A stretch of DNA of 64,000 nt from a virus. Made by a program: the position numbers and the translations under genes. This document shows, piece by piece, positions 3,438 through 64,000 of the stretch. The stretch is from the IMG/VR virus record IMGVR_UViG_3300009008_003296, positions 13,182 to 77,181 of that record, one strand, 5' to 3'. Position 1 is the first letter of the stretch; the number at the start of each line of letters is the position of its first letter. A model generated the notes under the pieces. It was given only the letters and a program-made list of their open reading frames with translations. It ran no database searches and was not told where the DNA came from.

Positions 3438-3642
3438 AGTTTTTATTTTTTCTTGACTCCCAAAGCACCTTCGGTTATGCTTGTCCCGCTAAGAGACGCA
3501 CATGAGCCTACACCATTCTTTTTCTGGCTACTTTGAAGGAACCAAAGTGGTTCAAAAAAATGGTTGACAAAGCGCCCAGATGTAGGTTATACTAAATTCT
3601 TCGAATCAGAGCTTTTACGCTCCCATGTTATTTTTAAAGTTT

Positions 3643-3990
3643 ATGGCCCAAAAGAAAAAAAACAAAAGAAGAATTCAAGATGTAGTTAGAAAGCATCTGA
3701 TTGCCCCTAAATATGAAAAGAAAAAATTCTGGGCAAAAGAGATGATGATCTTGAAAAGATTGATGCAGAAATATAATAATGAAGACTTTTGGCACAAGGC
3801 AGACTTTGGCAAGCAATTGAATAGTTTTGCTCAATTTTACGCTCTACCTTACAATAAGATGCTTGAAACTAAATACCAAGAATTTCACTTAAAAATTGAA
3901 ACCCCTGCTCCTCTTACGCTAGGCGACAAGTCCGGAACAGATCGAGTTTTCTCTCCTACCAAAACATTAAAAAACTTTCTAAATGGCTAG
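3643..3990 (+). CDS. hypothetical protein upstream of recA
   Basis: ORF 3625-3990, likely start MAQKKK at 3643; overlaps recA start; sigma70-like promoter at 3564. Confidence 0.6.
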   Translation: MAQKKKNKRRIQDVVRKHLIAPKYEKKKFWAKEMMILKRLMQKYNNEDFWHKADFGKQLNSFAQFYALPYNKMLETKYQEFHLKIETPAPLTLGDKSGTDRVFSPTKTLKNFLNG

Positions 3991-5120: not shown

Positions 5121-5522
5121 ATGACTTTTCAAACGCTTCTAGGAAAAAGGCGCAGAATTAAGCGTCCTGTAATTTACTTAATCAATTGGGAAAAAAACAG
5201 TCGTAGCAAATTACAAAGCAAGGTTAAAAATTTTTTAAAAGTTTTTTGGGACGGAGATGTAGTTTTTGAAGAGTTTCCAGTAGTTGGAACACGCCTAACA
5301 TTGGATTTTTATAATGCGACGAAAGATATAGCTATAGAAGTACAAGGAAGCCAGCACACAAAATACAATAAATTCTTTCATAAAGGAAATAAAATAAATT
5401 ATTTAAATCAATTAAAAAGAGACGACGACAAACTATCCTTTTGTGACCTGAATGGTATTAGATTACTTGAGGTTCACGAAGGCAATCTTGATTTTGCCTC
5501 TCTGTATAAAGAAATAGTGTAA
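5121..5522 (+). CDS. DUF559/Vsr-like PD-(D/E)XK endonuclease
   Basis: EEFP...LDFY...AIEVQGSQH...RDDDKLSFC...GIRLLEV. Confidence 0.75.
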   Translation: MTFQTLLGKRRRIKRPVIYLINWEKNSRSKLQSKVKNFLKVFWDGDVVFEEFPVVGTRLTLDFYNATKDIAIEVQGSQHTKYNKFFHKGNKINYLNQLKRDDDKLSFCDLNGIRLLEVHEGNLDFASLYKEIV

Positions 5523-6196: not shown

Positions 6197-7717
6197 ATGA
6201 TATTTTCACTAGAGCTTGAACAACATCTTCTTTCCGCGCTTATCAAACACCCTGAGAAGTACGGCAATATTGCTAGCTTTATTGATGAGAATGATTTTTG
6301 TGCAGACGAGAACTCTATAAATAAAACTATTTTTTATGTGCTTAGGCAAGCGCTAGAAAACGCAGAGCAGATGGACGAAGTGCTTTTGTCCCAGCGTGTG
6401 GACGCCCTTAATATCAGCTTTCCAAATGATATTAAAATTTCTGATTATATTCGCTCTTTAGCCTTGCGCAAAGTTTCTCCAAACAATGTAGAAAAAATAG
6501 CCCAAGAGCTTAAAAAATATACCGTTAGACGCGAAATCTTTGATGGCGCAAAAAGAGTGGCGGACTCTATGCGCAAAATGTCTCCTTGCACCTCATACAA
6601 TGACATCATAGAAAGCGCAGACAACACCTTTAACGAGAAAATTAATTTTTTTGATGCTGGCCCTAGTAGCCCCGTTAATATCTCTGACGAGATGGAGGAA
6701 TGGATAGAGGTTAGAGGCAATAACCCCGTTACGGAGTTTGGCCTTATGAGCCCTTACAAGCGCGTCAATGATCTTTATGGCTCCCTATTGCGTCCGGGCA
6801 ATATAACGGTCGTGGTGGCTCGCTCAGGGGTCGGGAAGACGCGTTTTTGTATGGACTTTTGTACCAAAGTGTCTTCTCAGTACGGAGTTCCTGTTTTGCA
6901 TTTTGATAATGGTGAAATGTCAAAAGAAGAGCTTATTGTGCGCCAATGTTCGGCTTTAAGTGGCGTGTCAGCTAACCTACTAGAGACAGGCCAATGGAGA
7001 CAAGCCGGAGAAGAAATTGTGAACAAGGTTCGCGCCGTTTGGAAAACGGTAAAAAATATTAAGTTTTATTATTATAATGTGGGAGGGATGAGCGTGGATA
7101 ACATGACAGCAACCTTACGACGCTTTTACTATTCCAAAATAGGCAGAGGGAATCCCTTGATTTTTTCGTTTGATTACATTAAAACCACCTTCGAGAACAA
7201 TGGAGCGAAGTCAGAATGGCAAATCGTTGGGGAGATGGTAGACAAGTTTAAAAAAACTATTCAAAAAGAAATTCTTTCTGACGGTGGTCCCGTTATCCCT
7301 ATGATTACTTCGGTACAAAGCAATCGATCTGGAATAGTCAACAATAGACAAGCACAGGATGTTGTTGATGACGAAAGTATCGTATCTCTTTCTGATCGCA
7401 TTACTCAATTTTGTTCTCATATGTTTATTTTAAGACAAAAGACTTTAGACGAAACAGCCAATGAGCCGAATTTTGGTACTCATAAATTGATTAATGTGAA
7501 GTCTCGTCACCTTGGCGCCGAATATATGAGAGCCATTAACCCAGTCAGAATGCCAGATGGTTCTTTGCGCAAAAATGCGATTAACCTACAAATGGATGGT
7601 TTTAACGTGGAAGAACGTGGCGACATGGTGGATTTAGTGAGAGCTCTAGATGTTAACGGCGAGCTTGACGCCGATGAAAACGTTGCTGATGATTTTATTC
7701 CGGAGCTTTTACGCTAA
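6197..7717 (+). CDS. dnaB: Replicative DNA helicase, DnaB family
   Basis: ARSGVGKT Walker A, GEMS, FDYIK, VQSNR, KSRH arginine finger. Confidence 0.9.
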   Translation: MIFSLELEQHLLSALIKHPEKYGNIASFIDENDFCADENSINKTIFYVLRQALENAEQMDEVLLSQRVDALNISFPNDIKISDYIRSLALRKVSPNNVEKIAQELKKYTVRREIFDGAKRVADSMRKMSPCTSYNDIIESADNTFNEKINFFDAGPSSPVNISDEMEEWIEVRGNNPVTEFGLMSPYKRVNDLYGSLLRPGNITVVVARSGVGKTRFCMDFCTKVSSQYGVPVLHFDNGEMSKEELIVRQCSALSGVSANLLETGQWRQAGEEIVNKVRAVWKTVKNIKFYYYNVGGMSVDNMTATLRRFYYSKIGRGNPLIFSFDYIKTTFENNGAKSEWQIVGEMVDKFKKTIQKEILSDGGPVIPMITSVQSNRSGIVNNRQAQDVVDDESIVSLSDRITQFCSHMFILRQKTLDETANEPNFGTHKLINVKSRHLGAEYMRAINPVRMPDGSLRKNAINLQMDGFNVEERGDMVDLVRALDVNGELDADENVADDFIPELLR

Positions 7718-8811
7718 TGGAAACCGAAGACATTAAAGAAATCTTAATTGAACTAGGGTTTAAACTACGTGATCGCGGACCCTACTGGCAAACCAATGCG
7801 CTATGGCGCAATGGAGATAACTTTACTGCGGTCCAAATATATAAAGACTCTGGGGTTTGGCGCGACTATGTTGACGACACTTCTTTTTTGCCCTTTCAGG
7901 CACTTATAGAGAAAACCTTAGGAACTAAGGATAAAAAAATACTGTCTCGCTATATTCAGCCTTCTGGCGACGTCAAATCGCCCTCTGCCTTTGAAAAACA
8001 AGATCAAAAAGTTAAAATACAAATGGACGAAACCTATTCATTGGAGTATTTATCCAAATTATTGCCTCATTTTAAATTCTATAACGATAAAGAAATCTCA
8101 AATTTAACATTAAAGCTCTACAAAGGTGGTTTGGCTACCGCTGGTAAGCTGAACGGCAGATTTGTTTTTCCTGTTTTTGATGAAAACGATCCTTCTCAAA
8201 TCATTGGCTTCACAGGGCGCCATTTGCGGTGGAACAGCGAATCAGAGTTTCCCAAGTGGAAGCATGTAGGGCGCAAATCTAATTGGCTTTATCCTATATG
8301 CATTACTGGGCCAGCGGATTTCTGCCCTTTTTTAGAATGCATTCAAGAACGCAGAGAAATTATCGTTGTCGAAAGCATTGGGGATAGTTTGGCATTAACA
8401 GAGAACGGCTTCCTGAACCATCTTGTAGTAGGAGGACTTGACCTAAGCTCAAAGCAGATTTCTTTTTTGCTATCCCAAGAATTGAACCAAATCATTATTG
8501 CTACCAATAATGACGAGTCTAAAGCGGGGCTTCATGCAGCTATTAAAATTTTCGTTAAGCTTTTAAATTATTTTGACATCAATAAACTCCGCATCAATCT
8601 TCCAGTAGGAAATGACTTTGGAGATATGCAGCAAGAAGGTGTAAATTTTACAGAGGCATGGTATAAAAAACCCTTAAACAAAGAGAAGCAAATATCTAAA
8701 ATATACTCTATCCTTAAAAGCAAAGAGGGAATGAATATCGTAAAAAATAAAACAGAAAGAAAGAAAAAAATAAATTTTCTTAAAAATCTACTAGAACAAC
8801 CCAATGTCTAA
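7717..8811 (+). CDS. dnaG: DNA primase (DnaG-like TOPRIM)
   Basis: GRFVFP, IGFTGR, PKW, VVESIGD, NND, NDFGD; translationally coupled to dnaB. Confidence 0.8.
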   Translation: METEDIKEILIELGFKLRDRGPYWQTNALWRNGDNFTAVQIYKDSGVWRDYVDDTSFLPFQALIEKTLGTKDKKILSRYIQPSGDVKSPSAFEKQDQKVKIQMDETYSLEYLSKLLPHFKFYNDKEISNLTLKLYKGGLATAGKLNGRFVFPVFDENDPSQIIGFTGRHLRWNSESEFPKWKHVGRKSNWLYPICITGPADFCPFLECIQERREIIVVESIGDSLALTENGFLNHLVVGGLDLSSKQISFLLSQELNQIIIATNNDESKAGLHAAIKIFVKLLNYFDINKLRINLPVGNDFGDMQQEGVNFTEAWYKKPLNKEKQISKIYSILKSKEGMNIVKNKTERKKKINFLKNLLEQPNV

Positions 8812-55500: not shown

Positions 55501-57897
55501 AAGGTGAGATTACAGCAAAATTTAACGACATAAAATAAAATGGGAGGATTTAGTATTGAATACAGCATGAGCCGCATTGGAAATGAAGATACATTTCTTG
55601 AATTAGATGAGGCAAAGAAGATAAGTCGCAAAATTGTAGACAACTACATTAGTGAAGTCGAGTATGAAGATGGAAAGAATGCCATAGACGAGTATAATTG
55701 GCACATCGTTACTTCAGAGGGATTTGAAGAAGATTGGTTTAATGACGACAAGCTAAAGAAAACTGGTGAAATTAAAGCCAAATATAAAAAGTTGGCAAAA
55801 AACAATCGGGTTTTTATTTTAGAAGTAGATTGGAATTAAGAAATTAAAATGACAACTAGAACTGGACGAGACAAGGTAAAGGACGATATACTTATGGCAA
55901 TGTATCGAAGCGTTGACAGACAGAACAAACATATTGTCAATTTGAATTGGCAGAGTGCCGAAGCAGAGAAGTGGCTACAAGTCAATTTAAGGCATAGCTT
56001 TAACGAAGTAACATGACTTACAAAGTAGAATTTGAAGTAGATGGAGATTCTGTTACCTATACAGTTAAAGCACAAAATGTTTTGAACGCAGAAGAAGCGG
56101 CCAAGAAACAATTAGAGAAAGACAATAATGTCAAATTACAATGCGGGAACGGCTATCACGACAGAGGCAAAGCATATAGCAAAGACGCATCCATAAAGAA
56201 GTCGAGATTCGCATGGGCAGTCACACAAATAGAGAACATAAAAGAGGCATGATAAGATTATTAACCGCAATATCCTTGGCAGTTTTGTTAGGGTGTTCAT
56301 ATTATACATTTGTTACATTGGGGCAACTTATGTCGCATTTGGATGAGATAGAAAGAGTGGCAAGAATGGGCAACCCTTCACCATATCATATTGTTAGTGT
56401 CGAAAGAGATTAGAAAACATATCATGTCGAAAATTTTTTTAATTTTTTTATTATTTACATCTGGTTGTAGCCATACTTACTATCAACCCCCAACCGAATT
56501 AAAAAGTGAACCAACTGTTATTAACATAGATGACTACGCCTAAACCCATTAAGAAGAAACCTAATGTTTTATGTATTAGTTGCGATGCTGCATATCCTTT
56601 AAATGCAAAGAACATTACCGTGCATGAAACCATCCCTTTGCCTACCCAAAAAGGCAAACTTGTAAGATTTACTTGTAGTAAATGTAAAGGAGAAACAACT
56701 TCAATGATAATAGATGAAGAAGATATAAAGAATAGTGATTCACCTATGCTTCGTAATATAAGAGCTAAACAAGAGGATAGATTAAGTAAAGAGGGAACAA
56801 ATAGAATTGTGAATGAAAAAGTAGTAAATAAAGGGAAAAAAGATAAATAAATATACTTCTTCTTTTCTCTCTCAAAATAAGAATCCCCAAATTTAAATAA
56901 ATTATATTAAATATACCAAACTAAAACCAGTTTAAGTTCAAACCAGTTCAAACCAGTTCAGTATCCCCCTCACTAAAAAAATATGAAACATTTTGTATTA
57001 TTACTGTATAATTTTTATAGATATATGGTTACTTTTTTATATGGAGTATTTGCTATTATATTATGCTTGTATGATATAACATTTACTCATTCATTGTTTT
57101 GGATTACTATGCTATTTTTGTCACTTATACAGTTCTTTGCGTATGCGAACGGGATGAAGGCGCAACTTGAAAGGCAATTCATAAAAGACTTTAATGAAAC
57201 AGTAAAAAAATCACTTGAAGAACAACAACAAAAAGAATATAATCAATTTAGAAATAATTAAATGAAATCAGTTACTATTACAATAGGAGATTACGATTTA
57301 GAGATAATTGAACAAATTTTTGAGAAAGAAAGCGCATTTTCACCGCAAGACCCTCGCGATGAGCTTATGATTGAGCTTATGCGTCAAATCAAGGATAATC
57401 CCAAGGTAGATTTAGGTGATGATGAGGCCGCCGAATACGAAAAAGCGAAAACTCGCTTTAGTAAGAACCTTGGAGCAGATGGCAAACAAGTAGTGAACCG
57501 AGAGGGCCAATACCTGTCGCCCGAAGAAGTGGGACTCGCCTAATTACGAACGAAATTTACTGAAATAAGCGCGGCGGCTTTTTGCATTTTTTTTATGTTT
57601 TTTTATGTTTTAAGGGAATTATGAATGATTTTTAGCTAAATATCTTGACTTCTCAAATGTGAATGATATAATGGTAAATATGGATACCGACATAGATTTT
57701 GAGTTTTGGGACGCCCAAATTAAACATTTTGTTAGTATTTTTAAAAGTGATATTTCTTCTGAAGAAGATAAAGAAATGGCCGAAACCCATTTAAATGAAA
57801 TAAAAGCTAGACTTAAAAGAGACATAAAAGATTTAAATAAATATATTAAAGAATTAGAGTCTGAATTGTGAACGAATTTAGTGTAAATATAAAATCA

Positions 57898-58263
57898 ATG
57901 AAGAATAAACTATTGATGATAGTCGGTGTTCTGGCGATTGCCGGAACAAGTGCAAATGCGGGTTGGTTTGGTGCTGGTGTAAAGCCTGTTCCTTTCATCA
58001 AGGTTCCGTTGTTGAAGCTAGTTGTTCCGTGCCCCTCTGCAGTTGCAGGGCCGCGCGCGGGAACAGAGGCAGATGCAAAAATCTCCACGCAAGGTGCGAG
58101 TGCTGCGCTACCTTGGTTGCGAGGTTCCGTTAGATGGCCAAGTTTAACCCTCGGGACTCCCGAGAAAAATATTACGATTGGCCCAAAACATCGTGACCCT
58201 TCCAAAGCAGCCGCAAAGAAGAAAGCGGCCGCCGCGAAGAAGCCAAAAGGTAAGCGTAAGTGA
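57898..58263 (+). CDS. Signal-peptide protein with Ala/Lys-rich tail
   Basis: MKNKLLMIVGVLAIAGTSANA signal; KAAAKKKAAAAKK C-terminus. Confidence 0.6.
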   Translation: MKNKLLMIVGVLAIAGTSANAGWFGAGVKPVPFIKVPLLKLVVPCPSAVAGPRAGTEADAKISTQGASAALPWLRGSVRWPSLTLGTPEKNITIGPKHRDPSKAAAKKKAAAAKKPKGKRK

Positions 58264-58294
58264 GCTAAATAAGCCCGCTTAACTCATAACAACT

Positions 58295-58323
58295 AAATCC
58301 TCCTGCAATGGGAGGATTTTTTT
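58295..58323 (+). terminator. Rho-independent terminator
   Basis: AAATCCTCC-TGCAATG-GGAGGATTT plus T run. Confidence 0.85.
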
Positions 58324-58368
58324 ATTTTTTTTATTGACTTTTAAAACTTGCGGTGCTATACTGGTCTA

Positions 58369-59016
58369 ATGCTTACAGACAAAGTTGCCAAATTCTTCAG
58401 CTCAATACGCGACAAAGAAATATCTAATTACAATAATTATTGGTCGCAGTTGCAGCCGCGCTTTATAGATGAGGCTTTTAAGCGATATGTGTTTGCTTTT
58501 TTATCTGTTCATACTACATGGGAGAATAATTGCAAAGCATACAATATGTTAAAAGACTTTAATAAGTGGAAAGATAATGAAGCCTTATTGCACAAGAAAT
58601 TAGTGCAGTCAAGAGTGGGGATGCAAAATAACAGAACAAAATATTTAAATAAATTTATTAAAGATTTCTGGTCTGACCAAGCAAAGTTTGTTGTAAAGGA
58701 AGATGAGGAGTCTTGGACAGAGTGGCGTGATAGATTAGTCAAATCAATATTAGGTTTAGGCAAAGCAAAAGTTTCGTTTGCATTAGAGATGATGTATCCA
58801 GTAGATGCTCAAGTTGCTTGTATGGATACGCACCTATTTCAAGTCTATGGCCTTGACCAAACCAAAGATAGTAAGCACTATAATACAATAGAAGCAGATT
58901 GGGTTGACCGTAGTAATAAGCGAGGACTTGCACCATACATGGCACGATGCCTTTATTGGGACAAAAATCAAAACAGAAAGAACTCACGCTACTGGAGCAA
59001 AGTTTTAGAAAAATAA
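58369..59016 (+). CDS. HhH-GPD DNA glycosylase/AP lyase (Ogg-like)
   Basis: FAFLS, RD.LV..I.GLGKAKVSF HhH with Lys, CMDTHL catalytic Asp, Y..IE. Confidence 0.78.
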   Translation: MLTDKVAKFFSSIRDKEISNYNNYWSQLQPRFIDEAFKRYVFAFLSVHTTWENNCKAYNMLKDFNKWKDNEALLHKKLVQSRVGMQNNRTKYLNKFIKDFWSDQAKFVVKEDEESWTEWRDRLVKSILGLGKAKVSFALEMMYPVDAQVACMDTHLFQVYGLDQTKDSKHYNTIEADWVDRSNKRGLAPYMARCLYWDKNQNRKNSRYWSKVLEK

Positions 59017-59059
59017 TTAAAATCTTGACAAAATTTCCCCAACTGATATACTTAACGAG

Positions 59060-59299
59060 ATGAAAAAGCAGACCTTGAACAAAGATGGAACTCCCCGCAA
59101 AACAGGGAGTGGACGCAAGAAAGGGTCGAATTGTTATCAGATGATTACAATAAAACAACTGAAACAATACATTACTGAAGATTACAAAATACCAGTAAAG
59201 CGACTCTGGCTTGAGAATGTAGTTGACAATATGGCATCAAATGATGTAGAATCTATTGCTGCTAAAGTAGAAGAAAAAATCGAATATACAATAAGCTAA
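59060..59299 (+). CDS. small basic DNA-binding-like protein
   Basis: PRKTGSGRKKGS AT-hook-like motif; own promoter at 59025. Confidence 0.55.
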   Translation: MKKQTLNKDGTPRKTGSGRKKGSNCYQMITIKQLKQYITEDYKIPVKRLWLENVVDNMASNDVESIAAKVEEKIEYTIS

Positions 59300-59305
59300 T
59301 TGACT

Positions 59306-60256
59306 ATGGAAAAAGAACAACCCTTCGAGAATCTGTTTGGTCAAGAGAATGTTAAGAAACGCCTCAAGTTTTACCTTGAAGCATTTGAAGCAACCAGTTT
59401 GTGTCCGTTTCTTGCATTCATTGGTGCAAAAGGATTAGGTAAGACAGAGTTTGCCCGACAATTCGCAAAAGAACTCAAGAATACTGACGGTTCAAAGCGA
59501 CCGTTCCTTGAGCTTAACTGCTCGACAATCAAGAATGTTGAGCAATTCTTTGAGCAGATATTCATTCCCATTATTATGGACAATGAGTTGACTGTCTTGT
59601 TTGATGAAGCGCACGAACTTCCCAAGGATTTAACGAACGCTTTTTTGACTGTATTCAATACAGAGAAGGTCACAACCAAGGAACTTCATTGGCGTGATGC
59701 TGTTTATCCATTCGACTTCAAGAAGCAGACCTTCATGTTTGCTACGACCGAATCGGATAAGATTTTCCCTCCATTGAAAGACCGTTTAACTTCGATTGAT
59801 TTCGAGGATTATTCCAATGAAGATTTGGGGAAGATATTCAAGGCTCAATGCGAGGAAATTGATTTCTCCGATGAGGCGTTGTTGGAGTTGGCTAAAACGA
59901 GTCGCGGAAATGCGCGTTCATGCGTTATGCGAGGTCGTGAGGTTGCTTTGTATTGCGCTCGCAAAGGAGACAATATCTTTAGAGCAGAAGATTTGGAGCC
60001 ATTCTTTGACCAGTTGGGCATATTGCCTTTTGGCTTGAGTGCGACAGAAATGCACCTACTTAAAATCCTTCGTCGTGATGGTCAATGTTCCTTGCAGATG
60101 TTGTCTGCCAAGACTGGATTGAGTCGTAGTGCAATTCAGCGCGACCATGAGTTATACTTAATGCGTAAGAATCTGATTGTAATTGACGGCAAGCGCAACA
60201 TCACCAACGATGGAGTCAAACTGGTCGAGGCGCATCATCGCGCACAAAAGAGTTGA
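59306..60256 (+). CDS. ruvB: RuvB-like AAA+ ATPase (Holliday junction branch migration)
   Basis: GQE.VK, GAKGLGKT, FDEAH, ATTE....PLKDR, SRGNAR, C-terminal winged helix E.YL...R.IT. Confidence 0.75.
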   Translation: MEKEQPFENLFGQENVKKRLKFYLEAFEATSLCPFLAFIGAKGLGKTEFARQFAKELKNTDGSKRPFLELNCSTIKNVEQFFEQIFIPIIMDNELTVLFDEAHELPKDLTNAFLTVFNTEKVTTKELHWRDAVYPFDFKKQTFMFATTESDKIFPPLKDRLTSIDFEDYSNEDLGKIFKAQCEEIDFSDEALLELAKTSRGNARSCVMRGREVALYCARKGDNIFRAEDLEPFFDQLGILPFGLSATEMHLLKILRRDGQCSLQMLSAKTGLSRSAIQRDHELYLMRKNLIVIDGKRNITNDGVKLVEAHHRAQKS

Positions 60257-60290
60257 CAAATGCCGCGCATTTGCTATACTTAACCCTGTT

Positions 60291-60485
60291 ATGACATACT
60301 TCTGGCTAATAGAGAATCTCATTAAGGAATACGCGAGACACCATCGCGCAGACGACACAACTTTAGACGGGTTCTTCAAACAGTTGCGCGAGGTAGTTGA
60401 TGCCGAGCTTGACATTACTTCACTCAAGGAACGCATGAAGGAATACGACCTTTACAATTCGTGGAATGACGATGCAGGAGCGTAA
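60291..60485 (+). CDS. hypothetical protein
   Basis: ATG 10 nt after TTGACA-N16-TATACT (60253-60280). Confidence 0.6.
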   Translation: MTYFWLIENLIKEYARHHRADDTTLDGFFKQLREVVDAELDITSLKERMKEYDLYNSWNDDAGA

Positions 60486-60800
60486 TATATACAAGGATGT
60501 ACCTATCTCAATAGTTAGAAGATATGTACTTAATAAGATCAAAGAGCTTGACGATGTACAGTTATCGAGAGTATATGAGTTAGTTTCACACAATCTGGCT
60601 TTGCAAAAAACAAAAGAACATCATCTTAATATATTAGTGCATGAAGAACACGATTGGAACTGAAACAAATAATAACTTAATAAGTGAATTGCAAATAGCT
60701 TAATACGTAATATAAGTGAAACAAATAATTGCTAAATATAGAAATGTAAATAATTGTAGCATAAATAAGGCGTAATAAGAGGTGGGCGAAAAAAGAGTTT

Positions 60801-60878
60801 CATAAGTCACTGATTACCAACGGTTTACGGCGGCGGGGTAGCCCGCGCCTCTAAACCCTTGTAGCGCAACAACTTACG
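60801..60878. repeat. Paired 29-bp imperfect palindrome element, copy A
   Basis: CATAAGTCACTG-ATTAC-CAACGGTTTACG, 20-bp GC spacer, TCTAAACCCTTG-TAGCG-CAACAACTTACG. Confidence 0.85.
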
Positions 60879-60888
60879 TTTGTCAAGC

Positions 60889-60915
60889 AAAAAACCCTCC
60901 CCATTGCGGGGAGGG
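60889..60915 (-). terminator. Rho-independent terminator of DUF932 gene
   Basis: CCCTCCCC-GCAAT-GGGGAGGG-TTTTTT on minus strand; same hairpin at 63533-63553. Confidence 0.85.
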
Positions 60916-60942
60916 TTGGTTCGTCTCAGAGCTTGTGTCCCG

Positions 60943-61698
60943 TTAGGACGCTAGAGACAATTCTCGTTGCGGAGCGATTCCGCACTCTCCATCCATCAGA
61001 CCGTGGAGAGCTTCGGTGCGCTTGGGCAGCGCGTTGAGGTTGCCCTTCAACACCTCGGTAAAGGCGTTGAACATCGACCACGCATTGCGTGGTTTGAACT
61101 CATCGTGATTGGGCGTGCGCCATTGATGCACAATGTCCATCACATGAGTTTTGGTGCAAGCACCTGACAACATCCCGCGAATGATTAGGTCATTCGCTTC
61201 CATGTTGGACAGTTCACGCTCTTTGTAAGCGTCGAATCGCTTCTCTTGGAAGTTCCAATGGTCAGCGAGTTTGCCCAAGGTGCGGGAAACAACTGCGGGA
61301 AGGTCGCGCAAAATATGGCGCGTGTGCTTGCGGGAGAGTTTAACTTCCCCCATGAACGATAGGTTGTCGCAAACGAAAACATTTGCACCAAACACCAACG
61401 AAGCAGGGAAACGCTTGTCGTGCGAGTTACGCACACCCATGACGCTGCCATACTCATTAGCACCATCCTGTCCCAAACGAAACAGGCCGAAGTAACGCCC
61501 ACCGTCATGTGTTAGCGCGTGCGATTCTTCCTTTACCGTGATATTTGCACGGTCAAGGTGACTACGAACCTCCGTGACCAAACGACTGTGCGGTACAGGC
61601 GTCCATGTATCCGTGGGGTCAGGAGTGTGAGATTGCTCCACTTCCCCGTAAGGAACTTGTGAAGCACCGCAATGTAACATTAGTCCAGTCATTGCCAT
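60943..61698 (-). CDS. DUF932 family protein
   Basis: LMLHCG, T.TW.PVPH, GVRNSHD, VFVCDNL, KHT, WSMFNAFTE..K; start MAMTG 10 nt after TATACT. Confidence 0.8.
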   Translation of the reverse strand: MAMTGLMLHCGASQVPYGEVEQSHTPDPTDTWTPVPHSRLVTEVRSHLDRANITVKEESHALTHDGGRYFGLFRLGQDGANEYGSVMGVRNSHDKRFPASLVFGANVFVCDNLSFMGEVKLSRKHTRHILRDLPAVVSRTLGKLADHWNFQEKRFDAYKERELSNMEANDLIIRGMLSGACTKTHVMDIVHQWRTPNHDEFKPRNAWSMFNAFTEVLKGNLNALPKRTEALHGLMDGECGIAPQRELSLAS

Positions 61699-61777
61699 AA
61701 CAGTAAAGAGTATACCATCTGTGCTAGTAATTGCAAGCAAAAAAAACGGTATCGCAAAAAAAACTTTTGGCTTGACA

Positions 61778-61856
61778 CGTAACCCGTTGAGTACCAACGG
61801 TTTACGCGCGGGGGGAGGCCCGCGCCCCCTAACCCCTTGATACTCAAGGACTTAGG
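61778..61856. repeat. Paired 29-bp imperfect palindrome element, copy B
   Basis: CGTAACCCGTTG-AGTAC-CAACGGTTTACG, 21-bp GC spacer, CCTAACCCCTTG-ATACT-CAAGGACTTAGG. Confidence 0.88.
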
Positions 61857-61963
61857 GCTTTCTTGTGTTTGGCCTTGCGTGAATACGCAACCTTGCTCTT
61901 GTGCGGTTGCGATGGCGGCGGCACAGGCTTTCGGATTTTTTTATATGCTTCCAATCTAGTCAC
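61844..61963 (-). CDS. 39-aa basic peptide with ArfA-like C-terminal motif (not in ORF track)
   Basis: GTG start: MTRLEAYKKIRKPVPPPSQPHKSKVAYSRKAKHKKALSP; GTGTAAT motif upstream. Confidence 0.55.
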   Translation of the reverse strand: MTRLEAYKKIRKPVPPPSQPHKSKVAYSRKAKHKKALSP

Positions 61964-61980
61964 TTGTATATTATTACACG

Positions 61981-62015
61981 AAAAAACCCCTGCAGTCAAG
62001 TCTAAACTGCAGGGG
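61981..62015 (-). terminator. Rho-independent terminator
   Basis: CCCCTGCAG-N11-CTGCAGGGG-TTTTTT on minus strand. Confidence 0.8.
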
Positions 62016-62042
62016 CTGCTATGAGAGACGGACTGTGTCCGT

Positions 62043-62261
62043 TTAGCGTGCGCGATAACGCGCGTTGCCTACGCGAGCAGACACGATGCGCTTGCGGCTC
62101 ACCTTACGGTCGAGACCAGTCGAAACATCGTTGAATGTCACATATTGAGGGCTTGCGCCGATGAATTGGGCGCAATAGTCCTTGTTCGTGCTTCCCTCTT
62201 TGAGGGTCAGGGTGGAAAAACGCCCACCCACCTGCGTCAGGAACTTATCCAGTTTGTTCAT
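62043..62261 (-). CDS. hypothetical protein
   Basis: Own promoter TTGACA-N16-TATACT (62298-62271) and terminator. Confidence 0.7.
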   Translation of the reverse strand: MNKLDKFLTQVGGRFSTLTLKEGSTNKDYCAQFIGASPQYVTFNDVSTGLDRKVSRKRIVSARVGNARYRAR

Positions 62262-62368
62262 GCTTTGTATAGTATAACCTTTCTGTTGGATTTGTCAAGC
62301 ATCTTTTTTGAGAATAACGGCCATAACACAAATGGCCCCAGCGAGTATAACAGCAATCAGATACATCC

Positions 62369-63106
62369 TCACTTATGAGTATAACCTTTGATTCCTGCTT
62401 TGTCAAACTTTTTCAATGCCGCCGATGCTTTGCTTCCCTTTGGTTGGGAGCCGTGAACATGGAGCGCAAAATCTTCGCCGCGCTTGTTGTGGATTGCGTG
62501 GCTGTCGTCGTGGTCATGTTCCAAGCCGGAGGCTTTCAATTCGTCGGGGTCAAAAAACACACGCGCAGACTTTTCGCCTATCTCTTCAATCATGTCGTCG
62601 TGTTTGCCGTCCCAGCTTTGAGTGAAGGAAAAATTGTCGGGAATTAAATCCGCGTCTTGGCAAATCTTCAACCATTTCAGGCTCTTCGTGTAAGCGTAGA
62701 ACTTACTGCGCGGATATTTTTTAGCAACTAACAGCCAAGCCTTCATATAGTTTAGAGTCTTGAAATCCCCGCCAATATGGACACGCATAATGCCGCCAAC
62801 TGTTTTGATTGCTTCGGGCAAACTTTCGCAAATCAGGTCAACCATGGATTTGATTGTTTTGGTTGCGTTTAGTAAGTCAAAGTTGTGCCAGCGTTGTCGT
62901 CGGACTGATGGATAACGCGCCTCGTCCATCGCAGCGTAGCAACGATAGTTTTGGTTTGGGCCGTCTTTTATCTTGCCAGTCTCTTTTATTGCGTAGGTCA
63001 AGCAACCAGACGCACCGGGACAAGTATAGCCAGAGGGCAAGGAAAAGTGCCAAATGCCTTTCAGCTTGGCGTTCTCAAATCCGAATCGCAGAAGGTTTTT
63101 CGTCAT
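62369..63106 (-). CDS. GP88-like protein (Cys-containing, radical-SAM-like phage family)
   Basis: N.KL, FSLPSGYTCPGA..C....CYA, RVHIGGDF, FYAYTK. Confidence 0.75.
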   Translation of the reverse strand: MTKNLLRFGFENAKLKGIWHFSLPSGYTCPGASGCLTYAIKETGKIKDGPNQNYRCYAAMDEARYPSVRRQRWHNFDLLNATKTIKSMVDLICESLPEAIKTVGGIMRVHIGGDFKTLNYMKAWLLVAKKYPRSKFYAYTKSLKWLKICQDADLIPDNFSFTQSWDGKHDDMIEEIGEKSARVFFDPDELKASGLEHDHDDSHAIHNKRGEDFALHVHGSQPKGSKASAALKKFDKAGIKGYTHK

Positions 63107-63115
63107 AACAGAATG

Positions 63116-63196
63116 AGTATACCAGACCAGCAGCATTTGTCAAGAAATAAAAAACTTTAAAAAAAACTTGACTTCGCAACGTTTTTGCGCTATAGT
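63116..63196. promoter_or_regulatory. Divergent pair of sigma70-type promoters
   Basis: Minus TTGACA(63143)-N16-TATACT; plus TTGACT(63168)-N17-TATAGT; A-tract between. Confidence 0.8.
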
Positions 63197-63205
63197 TAGA
63201 AAGTT

Positions 63206-63412
63206 ATGAGCAATAAGACTCCCGAAATGGAAGCGGCCCTTGAGGATCTGGGGCAGGTGTTGTTTGGTCGTAGTCGTCAAGTGGCTGCGGACAATCAGTT
63301 GTGCGTTGTGTGTGGTAGCGATGCTAATTTTTTCCGTGATGATCTTTCGCGCAAAGAGTTTAGTATATCACGAATGTGTCAGTCTTGTCAAGACAAAACA
63401 TTCGGAGGGTAA
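63206..63412 (+). CDS. small zinc-binding protein
   Basis: CVVC...FRDDLS.KEF.IS.MCQSCQD..F. Confidence 0.7.
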   Translation: MSNKTPEMEAALEDLGQVLFGRSRQVAADNQLCVVCGSDANFFRDDLSRKEFSISRMCQSCQDKTFGG

Positions 63413-63453
63413 ATAGGTGTGCCCTTAATAGGGGGGCAATTAATGTGCGCCTT

Positions 63454-63532
63454 CGTAAACCCTTGAGTATCAAGGGTTTAGGCCCGGGGGGCTAGGCCGC
63501 GGTCGTAAACCGTTGGTAGTCAAAGAGATACC
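63454..63532. repeat. Paired 29-bp imperfect palindrome element, copy C (inverted relative to A and B)
   Basis: CGTAAACCCTTG-AGTAT-CAAGGGTTTAGG, 21-bp GC spacer, CGTAAACCGTTG-GTAGT-CAAAGAGATACC. Confidence 0.88.
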
Positions 63533-63591
63533 CCCTCCCCATTGCGGGGAGGGGGCGCGTTAGTTATGAGAGAATGCGGAGGGAGGGGAAA

Positions 63592-63819
63592 CTATTCAGA
63601 GATTGTTTGGCGTATCTTCTTCATCTTGCTCTTTAAGAAAGAAACAGCTTCACAGTTTTTGGCATTCGTTTGAATGATGTGAGACAGACTATATTCTATC
63701 TTGCGCGTCAGGTCTTGACGCAATGCATCCAATTTGTTTGCATCTGCTCGCTTAACTGCGCGAGTCTTCTTTACTGCCTTCTTCTTATCAGCCTTCTGTT
63801 TCAAATGTTTAGTCTTCAC
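63592..63819 (-). CDS. hypothetical basic protein
   Basis: 75-aa ORF between putative ncRNA and hairpin 63531-63555. Confidence 0.55.
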   Translation of the reverse strand: MKTKHLKQKADKKKAVKKTRAVKRADANKLDALRQDLTRKIEYSLSHIIQTNAKNCEAVSFLKSKMKKIRQTISE

Positions 63820-63834
63820 TTTTTTAAAATAAAA

Positions 63835-63999
63835 TGGTGGCGGGAGTATTTGTGTACCCGCACCTTTTCAGTACCCAAGAAACAAATGTTTCAGATCTAC
63901 CTACTTCGGACTCACCCGCGATTTTCCTCTGCCACTAGGCCGTTGTACTTCTCGCAGTCGCTGCATTATCCCCGTGGGAGGGATTATTCTGCCACACCG
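63835..63999 (-). ncRNA. 3' part of a structured non-coding RNA (possibly manA-like), truncated by window end
   Basis: No credible ORF; multiple hairpins (ATCCC/GGGAT, GAAACA/TGTTTC, GAAA-capped stem); ends CCGCCACCA then T run. Confidence 0.5.
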
Positions 64000-64000
64000 A

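Follow-up and report, generated by a model that had tools for sequence, protein, structure and literature searches.

A paired-palindrome module between early-gene cassettes of uncultured aquatic phages: a candidate protein-docking boundary element

Should three copies of a paired palindrome that bracket small genes at a strand switch in a viral contig be understood as sites of a recombinase, as mobile repeats, as hairpins, or as docking sites of a DNA-binding protein? This question is raised by a 64,000-nucleotide stretch of DNA (hereafter the window), which constitutes the final 64 kb of the 77,181-nt marine IMG/VR contig IMGVR_UViG_3300009008_003296 (positions 13,182 to 77,181; CheckV completeness 52%). 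A first-pass annotation of the window, made from the letters alone, had noticed the three elements, here termed A, B and C (Table 1), and had proposed that they are sites of the tyrosine-recombinase type at which early-gene modules might be excised or inverted. The comparisons presented below favor a different reading, to which we assign a probability of about 0.55, namely that the elements represent a double-stranded protein-docking module with a boundary or regulatory role between early transcription units rather than recombinase sites.

Anatomy of the module and its distribution among phages

All three elements are 78–79 bp long and consist of a 29-bp dyad, a GC-rich and partly self-complementary spacer and a second 29-bp dyad, the dyad centers being 49–50 bp apart (60815/60864 in A, 61792/61842 in B and 63468/63518 in C). 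A degenerate form of the 29-mer yielded nine matches, every one within A, B or C, as against none in 100 shuffles, which confirms the three paired palindromes first reported. Their center spacing, the inner 15-mer TACCAACGGTTTACG, which is exact in all three, and their relative orientations (A and B direct repeats, 79% over 48 nt; B and C inverted, 75% over 76 nt) were also as originally described, as was the bare TTGACA that adjoins both A (on the minus strand, 60886-60881) and B (on the plus strand, 61772-61777) and lacks a -10 box at the usual distance. With regard to the dyad itself, the symmetry claimed for it stands, but the parse into 12-bp arms around a 5-bp center does not: a 13-3-13 parse is better, because the first and last letters of the 5-nt "center" are usually A and T. 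Nor are the three copies equal, since A and C are partly decayed. Only B is well kept; in A the outer arm of each dyad, and in C that of the second dyad, has degenerated (6-8/12 complementary by hand count), the last of these having become fused to the neighboring terminator. The variants AAACC and TACCAA are lineage-specific and common to all three copies. The stop codon of a 39-aa open reading frame (ORF) indeed lies inside B, although this ORF is probably not a gene. The 29-mer was not found in the other 74 kb of the 77-kb contig, which ends approximately 470 nt past C, at window position 64000.

The palindrome, CGTAARYCSTTGA-NNN-TCAASGRYTTACG in the 13-3-13 parse, is present in more than 118 IMG/VR loci, as detected with the approximately 38-bit pattern GTAARYCSTTG-N5-CAASGRYTTA, for which less than one chance match is expected by our estimate. 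This abundance in relatives disposes of a chance local duplication, which had been the explanation suggested in case the motif were absent from them. Among the matches listed, many loci carry 3-16 matches within 14 kb, and a tolerance of three mismatches gives 683 dyads across 119 loci, 74% of these dyads having a partner within 75 nt at a center spacing of 42, 50 or 58 bp. The window copies align column by column, spacer included, with the modules of two of these loci, L118 and L130 (consensus approximately GGCCGGGGCnGCCCCCGCG), with 28 invariant columns. The exact 15-mer was also tried as a family probe in IMG/VR and was discarded, as its matches were mostly due to chance. Megablast and blastn searches with the region and the canonical module recovered no match in 50,697 cultured-phage records, and no published description was found for the motif strings or for combinations of phage, IHF and palindrome. 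Thus, the module is apparently undescribed, while repeated regulatory linkers between phage early cassettes as such are already known.

Bacterial genome contigs with the 26-nt pattern, which come from all phyla, were considered as possible chromosomal sites and rejected, being mostly single, fully complementary terminator hairpins after tRNA or other genes. The multi-copy bacterial matches are small phage-like contigs binned into metagenome-assembled genomes (MAGs), and therefore identify neither a host nor a chromosomal regulon. A multi-copy chromosomal repeat that terminates with GTAAGTCCTTGAAAAACAACGACTTAC and then 12-17 consecutive C residues (Latescibacterota MAG contig CBDETK010000013.1; L202-L209, L224, L233 and others) is unrelated and fits the pattern accidentally.

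Four phage records, namely the source contig (G000) and G001, G002 and G003, were searched whole. In G001, which is a relative by gene content (112.8 kb, 83% complete), 22 of the 23 dyads fall within 85.1-93.7 kb; G002 has 8 pairs in a block at 34.6-43.8 kb and G003 has 11 pairs in a block at 10.9-21.9 kb. In all three, the dyads keep to a single GC-richer block, which consists of small early genes, DUF932 and GP88 included, and carries a module in nearly every intergenic gap. The element-bearing block is 3-10 points richer in GC than the remaining sequence in all four phages (0.43-0.49 against 0.36-0.40; its part in the window is 60900-64000), implying that the GC jump seen in the window is a property of the block and not a sign of recent import. 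As G001-G003 carry many modules in the equivalent block, the window can be understood as holding the first three modules of an early block cut by the contig end. The initial count of three copies is hence correct for the window but not as the full set, given that the contig ends at 64000 and these three records carry 8-11 pairs.

The gene content of the block is recurrent too. DUF932 and GP88, the two cassettes that can be annotated in the window, are the genes most commonly found near elements in the 118 loci (GP88 in 30 and DUF932 in 25, among the matches listed), followed on the same basis by PhoH (21), a zinc-ribbon protein (20), an L5-gp82-like protein (20) and a sigma-70-r2-like protein (19). 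All four records contain DUF932, and the order element-DUF932-element-GP88 is found in L118 and L103, as in the window. A conserved pair of genes stands at the border of the block in three divergent phages, G000, G001 and G003; in it, a small basic protein of 79 aa is directly followed by a clamp-loader-like AAA+ protein with a C-terminal winged helix (window 59060-60256, G001 93894-95169, G003 6937-8424). The AAA+ protein, taken as RuvB-like, had been entertained as an initiator beside the block, and looks like a clamp loader instead.

The position of the module relative to transcription signals is likewise regular. In L118 the order in the gene direction is gene stop, intrinsic terminator, T-run, GCTTGACA, dyad 1, GC spacer and dyad 2, followed by an A-rich tract of about 40 nt that contains CTTTGCGATAAGC, a promoter of the form TTGACA/T-N16-17-TATACT and the ATG. 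The window follows this order of terminator, module, and A/T tract with promoter: the near edge of B is 42 nt upstream of the -35 box of the DUF932 promoter (61736-61731), and the A/T-rich, UP-like tract before that promoter (61737-61771) contains TTTGCGATA, as in L118. On the whole, 79 of 381 family elements have a strong outward promoter at a distance of at most 100 nt, as against 28 for an equal number of random positions. For most strong promoters in window positions 57645-63200 and in the element-bearing loci, the ATG lies 6-11 nt past the -10 box, with peaks at 6, 7 and 10 nt over the 118 loci; the window promoters with such a short distance include those at 58334, 59025, 60253, 62298, 63143 and 63168. 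The early mRNAs of this phage group are probably leaderless, and the short distance to the ATG means that the module is not part of a 5' leader. Its DNA is transcribed by read-through only and is essentially untranscribed.

Conservation of the arms and candidate readers

Evidence on the nature of the dyad comes from an unbiased test, in which one arm served as the anchor and the other was read freely in 541 instances. The partner arm proved to be strongly conserved (C18 86%, A19 95%, T25 and T26 92%, A27 86%; n=541), and Watson-Crick pairs were found at positions 9/21, 7/23 and 1/29 in 222, 325 and 320 instances, as against 218, 327 and 325 expected under independence. This retention of arm sequence without pairing covariation argues for a double-stranded site read by a symmetric protein rather than for a hairpin. 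It also fits the operators or other protein-binding sites that the first-pass annotation had listed among its alternatives.

We accordingly favor a model in which the module, a conserved intergenic unit of a large group of uncultured aquatic phages with two 29-bp dyad sites (half-site CGTAARYCSTTGA) and a GC-rich spacer, would act as a double-stranded docking platform for a symmetric, sequence-specific DNA-binding protein. Placed between the terminator of one early unit and the A/T tract and sigma-70-type promoter of the next leaderless gene, it may shape or insulate the promoter region, the predicted binder presumably bending the DNA and thereby influencing transcription. Being both repeated and conserved, the module might double as a homology patch, by means of which early-gene cassettes would be exchanged through ordinary homologous recombination, as has been envisaged for the promoter-early stem-loops (PeSLs) of T4-type phages.

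The near-invariance of the dyad in the early regions of more than 100 phage contigs implies that some host or viral protein must read it within the first minutes of infection. Given that phages with only about 40-55% identity in the proteins they have in common retain almost the same site, this reader is expected to be a slowly evolving, conserved protein, such as a nucleoid protein of the host. The information profile of the free arm peaks at C18 A19 A20 and T25 T26 A27, which are the specified letters of WATCAAnnnnTTR; the IHF core consensus is WATCAANNNNTTR (as quoted in PMC8942017). TCAAnnnnTTR is matched by 264 of 496 arms and the full IHF consensus by 124 of 496, the latter being the E. 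coli consensus. In the 64-kb window there are 11 exact matches to the IHF consensus against a chance expectation of 6.5, two of which lie inside elements, at 61830-61842 (minus strand) in B and at 63468-63480 (plus strand) in C. We therefore tentatively prefer a host DNA-bending protein of the IHF/HU (DNABII) type as the binder, a choice that has clearly less than even odds in our estimation. Established IHF sites, such as H' of lambda attP and those upstream of lambda pL or of sigma-54 promoters, are comparable in several respects: the six best-kept letters per arm read TCAA-N4-TTA, the dyads precede promoters by tens of bp and are weakly phased with them on the helix, and in one locus (L162) they adjoin promoters of the sigma-54 type. 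The present sites differ in having two mirrored, back-to-back cores with the extra letters S-G-R-Y, an outer CG and a weak WAT, and in being always accompanied by a GC-rich spacer and usually by a second dyad; IHF binding to them is a prediction only.

Several observations weigh against a docking module of this kind or against IHF as its reader. The three classes of dyad spacing (42, 50 and 58 bp) share no single helical phase, and the periodicity of about 10.5-11 bp in the distance from the proximal dyad center to the predicted transcription start (R 0.22-0.24, nominal p ~0.002-0.0005), though it speaks for the docking module, derives from related, non-independent copies. A recognizable strong sigma-70 promoter within 100-150 nt is found for only about one-fifth to one-quarter of the elements. 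In the window, no promoter lies beyond A, which follows the DUF932 terminator at the strand switch, and B and C have opposite orientations though both face minus-strand promoters. As for the reader, classical IHF sites are asymmetric and the arrangement here is mirrored, and, as the N4 letters (S-G-R-Y) and the outer CG are conserved as well (0.6-1.1 bits) and the WAT part is weak, the dyad specifies more than the E. coli IHF consensus. Furthermore, no DNABII gene was found in any of the four phage records, so that a host factor must be assumed.

A dedicated dimeric protein comes close behind the IHF/HU type as a possible binder. One version of this idea, which we consider rather unlikely, is that the dyads are operators of a phage regulator that switches the early block, the DUF932, GP88, L5-gp82-like, zinc-ribbon and sigma-like proteins being the candidates. 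The 13-3-13 symmetry and the pairing of sites would suit a dimer of dimers, the conservation of the N4 letters and outer CG exceeds the IHF core, and GP88 and DUF932, as noted above, are the commonest neighbors of the elements. In addition, T4 MotA and TnsE have DNA-binding C-terminal domains to which the N-domain of DUF932 bears a weak likeness, with Z values of 6.4-7.4 that fall within the noise. This likeness might serve as a lead but is not evidence, as the AF2 model of the protein (pLDDT 79) reached VIA Z scores of at most 8, which is noise level only. This model had no Foldseek match, a sequence search of the PDB gave nothing useful, no functional literature on DUF932 was found, and tblastn against the 50,697 cultured-phage records retrieved only Salinibacter phages at 28% identity; a search with GP88 in the ESM Atlas returned only the label "GP88". 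One difficulty is that private regulators and their operators usually drift together, whereas this site is nearly constant among phages with about 40% identical proteins. Moreover, no helix-turn-helix or other known DNA-binding domain was found in the neighboring genes, and the closest DUF932 homologs, which peptide patterns located on other viral contigs, are without elements. The scattering of one protein site through early intergenic gaps has a precedent in the stoperators of mycobacteriophage L5 and the C1 operators of P1, and the gene set here includes the L5-like gp82 and gp88 families. Unlike the present paired 29-bp dyads, which have no known repressor, those sites are short, lack symmetry and have the known repressor of a temperate phage as their reader.

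With comparably low odds, the double dyad could be the site of a so far undescribed factor, either a phage protein such as DUF932 or GP88 or an unrecognized host protein. This would point to a widespread phage system for controlling, insulating or mobilizing early-gene cassettes that is distinct from both IHF sites and PeSLs. If, on the other hand, the reader is IHF, phages would be using a symmetric, paired version of the classic site genome-wide. In either event, naming the reader would explain how phages organize batteries of very strong promoters that drive leaderless genes, would show how cassettes such as DUF932, GP88 and others shuffle between lineages, and could supply a sequence handle for host prediction. 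The result for the window itself is modest, namely three copies, of which two have decayed, located where the contig is cut off.

It is improbable, by comparison with these protein-binding readings, that the dyads function as hairpins or cruciforms, be it as an RNA processing or stability signal, as a terminator helper or as a single-stranded-DNA signal. Although B and C fold better as single strands than shuffled sequences (z -4 to -7.5, the lower extreme being reached by B), any palindrome must do so. The spacer can form a third small hairpin, and the AAGTC/GGTTT arm pairs allow G-U pairing on one strand in some lineages, but the strand so favored is sense in L103 and antisense in L039. No variable arm position shows an excess of compensatory change, and about 45% of strict matches have a C-C or G-G clash in mid-stem (arm position 9). 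The dyads are not followed by a T-run, and covariance models of Rfam 15 gave no match to the elements of the window or to those of five element-rich loci. Finally, located after intrinsic terminators and before leaderless starts, the elements are largely untranscribed.

Mobility, recombination and cassette exchange

We consider it similarly improbable that the module is a non-autonomous mobile repeat, akin to miniature inverted-repeat transposable elements or to REP/BIME and Correia elements, which spreads in phage early intergenic DNA and has acquired any regulatory role secondarily. It is a short, dyad-symmetric, multi-copy intergenic unit occurring across many phages, and the variants common to A, B and C suggest duplication or conversion within the genome. 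Yet the Pfam searches, whose controls were positive, detected no Y1 transposase/RAYT (PF01797) in G000-G003, and no target-site duplications were seen. Filled versus empty sites were absent among loci at least 85% identical, of which there are few pairs, and the copies are confined to one block, with a fixed place in the order terminator-module-promoter. Enterobacterial BIME-1/RIP and neisserial Correia elements are located on chromosomes, form hairpins and are linked to spread by RAYT or other transposases. BIME-1 and Correia elements resemble the present module as short intergenic dyad repeats with palindromes and an IHF-type site that are able to affect neighboring transcription. The module departs from REP families (PMC3733652, PMC3184786) in that its half-site starts with CGTAAG and lacks a GTAG/CGTC tag, and in its absence of covariation, lack of a Y1 transposase and restriction to one phage block.

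The reading proposed at the outset, in which a recombinase would cut within the dyads to excise, invert or insert modules at dif-, loxP-, pdif- or attC-like sites, appears the least probable of those considered here. It draws on the inverted 12-13-bp arms, on the bracketing of self-contained promoter-gene-terminator units by copies in direct (A/B) and inverted (B/C) orientation, on the differences by whole cassettes between related phages and on the possibility that a host Xer-type enzyme acts on the sites. To these can be added a contig, seen in two runs, which diverges 6 nt left of C and has a different left neighbor. However, the Pfam search of G000-G003 (the 77-kb contig and three records, one of them 83% complete) found neither a tyrosine (PF00589) nor a serine (PF00239) recombinase, which bears out the earlier remark that the window encodes none and extends it to the whole contig and three further records. 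The core sites of such enzymes have inverted arms around an asymmetric 6-8-bp center, or around an even 2-bp crossover center, whereas the dyad center is odd and short, at 3 nt (5 by the 12-5-12 parse). The occurrence of a module in nearly every intergenic gap of the block also fits regulation better than it fits a few att sites. With dif, pdif and attC sites, the elements share the bracketing of gene modules by short inverted-arm sites in alternating orientation. They differ from them in their central length and symmetry, in the lack of any recombinase found, in cassettes with their own promoters and terminators, and in breakpoints that lie off the sites. As regards integron attC sites in particular, no pairing covariation is seen here, no integrase was found and the cassettes are not promoterless.

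Sequencing data on the region agree with this assessment. Parts of it are represented in 20 runs from 13 studies, and the phage is marine; no RNA data set was listed among the runs that contain it. Four runs, each of a different study, were compared with the window: in three of them contigs span A, B and C in the window order with 1-2% divergence, and those of the fourth (X9) bridge A at most. Joints of an A-B excision or circle or of a B-C inversion were absent from the contigs of these four runs, which by their nature drop rare forms. A form that skips from 63467 to 63520 in two runs is C reduced to one dyad, one 50-bp repeat unit having been lost or never gained.

Where related phages cease to be homologous, the breakpoints avoid the dyads. 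Only 2% of them are within 100 nt of a dyad as against 18% for random positions, and they cluster at 112-117 and 155-157 nt from the dyads, that is, at the edges of the conserved module, in a pattern based on about five distinct exchange events and on related, non-independent copies, which tempers what it contributes to the docking-module reading. Breakpoints at module edges are what is expected of homology-based crossover within a shared linker, and not of crossover at a core site. Replacements or indels of cassettes bounded by conserved modules were observed in the comparisons L103/L089/L080 and L118/L084. The statement that the elements bracket gene modules holds in a looser, PeSL-like sense, and finds no support for units excised by a recombinase.

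PeSLs, which have been described in the T4-type phages RB49/phi1, T4/PST and KVP40/nt-1, and for which homologous crossover inside the shared linker has been proposed (PMC2839356, PMC4122927), would be the functionally nearest known system by analogy. In both, composite terminator/promoter linkers with strong sigma-70-like promoters appear to recur among the small accessory early genes of a plastic region, and in both the cassette differences between relatives are bounded by the conserved linker, consistent with homologous exchange. In contrast to PeSLs, the core of the present module consists of paired, sequence-conserved dyads with a GC spacer and is not itself a terminator, separate terminators adjoining it. 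This core is also common to otherwise very divergent phages, and no mini-circles were seen.

Genes and transcription signals around the elements

The coordinates of the elements and of the genes and signals around them are collected in Table 1. Promoters of the TTGACA-16/18-TATACT type precede the DUF932 gene, the 72-aa gene, the 23-aa ORF, the GP88 gene and the 68-aa gene, and the window cassettes carry their own promoter and terminator. The DUF932 mRNA is probably leaderless. A 21-nt terminator hairpin core, CCCTCCCCATTGCGGGGAGGG, is identical at 60895-60915 and 63533-63553, where it ends the DUF932 and 75-aa genes, respectively, each beside an element. The strong promoter-like site nearest to C, which lies within the 3' end of the 68-aa ORF of the plus strand and is followed by no ORF, could drive an antisense RNA or act as a second promoter for GP88.

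Table 1. Elements, genes and transcription signals in the element-bearing part of the window
Feature	Position	Strand	Remarks
Element A	60801-60878		Dyad 60801-60829, spacer 60830-60849, dyad 60850-60878; inner arms intact, both dyads decayed
Flank GCTTGACA	60879-60888	minus	Separates A from the terminator T-run; also stands before canonical modules of IMG/VR locus L118
Intrinsic terminator of DUF932 unit	60893-60917	minus	Followed by TTTTTTGCTTGACAAA, then A
DUF932 (PF06067) gene	60943-61698	minus	Probable start ATG at 61698, 10 nt past the -10 box
DUF932 promoter, sigma-70-type	61709-61736	minus	TTGCAA-16-TATACT with TG
Element B	61778-61856		Dyad 61778-61806 (arms 11/12 complementary), spacer hairpin GCGCGGG..CCCGCGC, dyad 61828-61856 (10/12)
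Intrinsic terminator of 72-aa gene unit	61985-62017	minus	
72-aa gene	62043-62261	minus	Own promoter 62271-62298; ATG 9 nt past the -10 box
23-aa hydrophobic peptide ORF (MYLIAVILAGAICVMAVILKKDA)	62295-62366	minus	Own consensus promoter 62378-62406; between GP88 and the 72-aa gene
GP88 (PF17338) gene	62369-63106	minus	Promoter 63116-63143; ATG 9 nt past the -10 box
68-aa Cys-rich (CxxC..CxxC) gene	63206-63412	plus	Divergent promoter 63168-63196
Strong promoter-like site	63362-63391	minus	TTGACA-18-TATACT (11/12, with TG); 63 nt from C
Element C	63454-63532		Inverted relative to B; good dyad 63454-63482, spacer, dyad 63504-63532
Intrinsic terminator of 75-aa gene (63592-63819, minus)	63530-63556	minus	Directly adjoins C

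Some minor observations concern signals of other kinds. Locus L162 has four near-perfect sigma-54-type promoters (TTGGCACG-N4-TTGC/TGCT) beside its dyads (3640-3780, 5370-5400 and neighbors), which are often paired with an inverted CRTGCCAA; promoters of this type were not found in the window. A sequence resembling AACTGAAACAAATAAT occurs twice, 56 nt apart (60658-60738), in the AT-rich gap of the convergent strand switch, shortly before A. Positions 63830-64000 of the minus strand partially match the manA RNA motif (RF01745; 27 bits, E 4e-4, model positions 17-192), its 5' part having been lost at the contig end.

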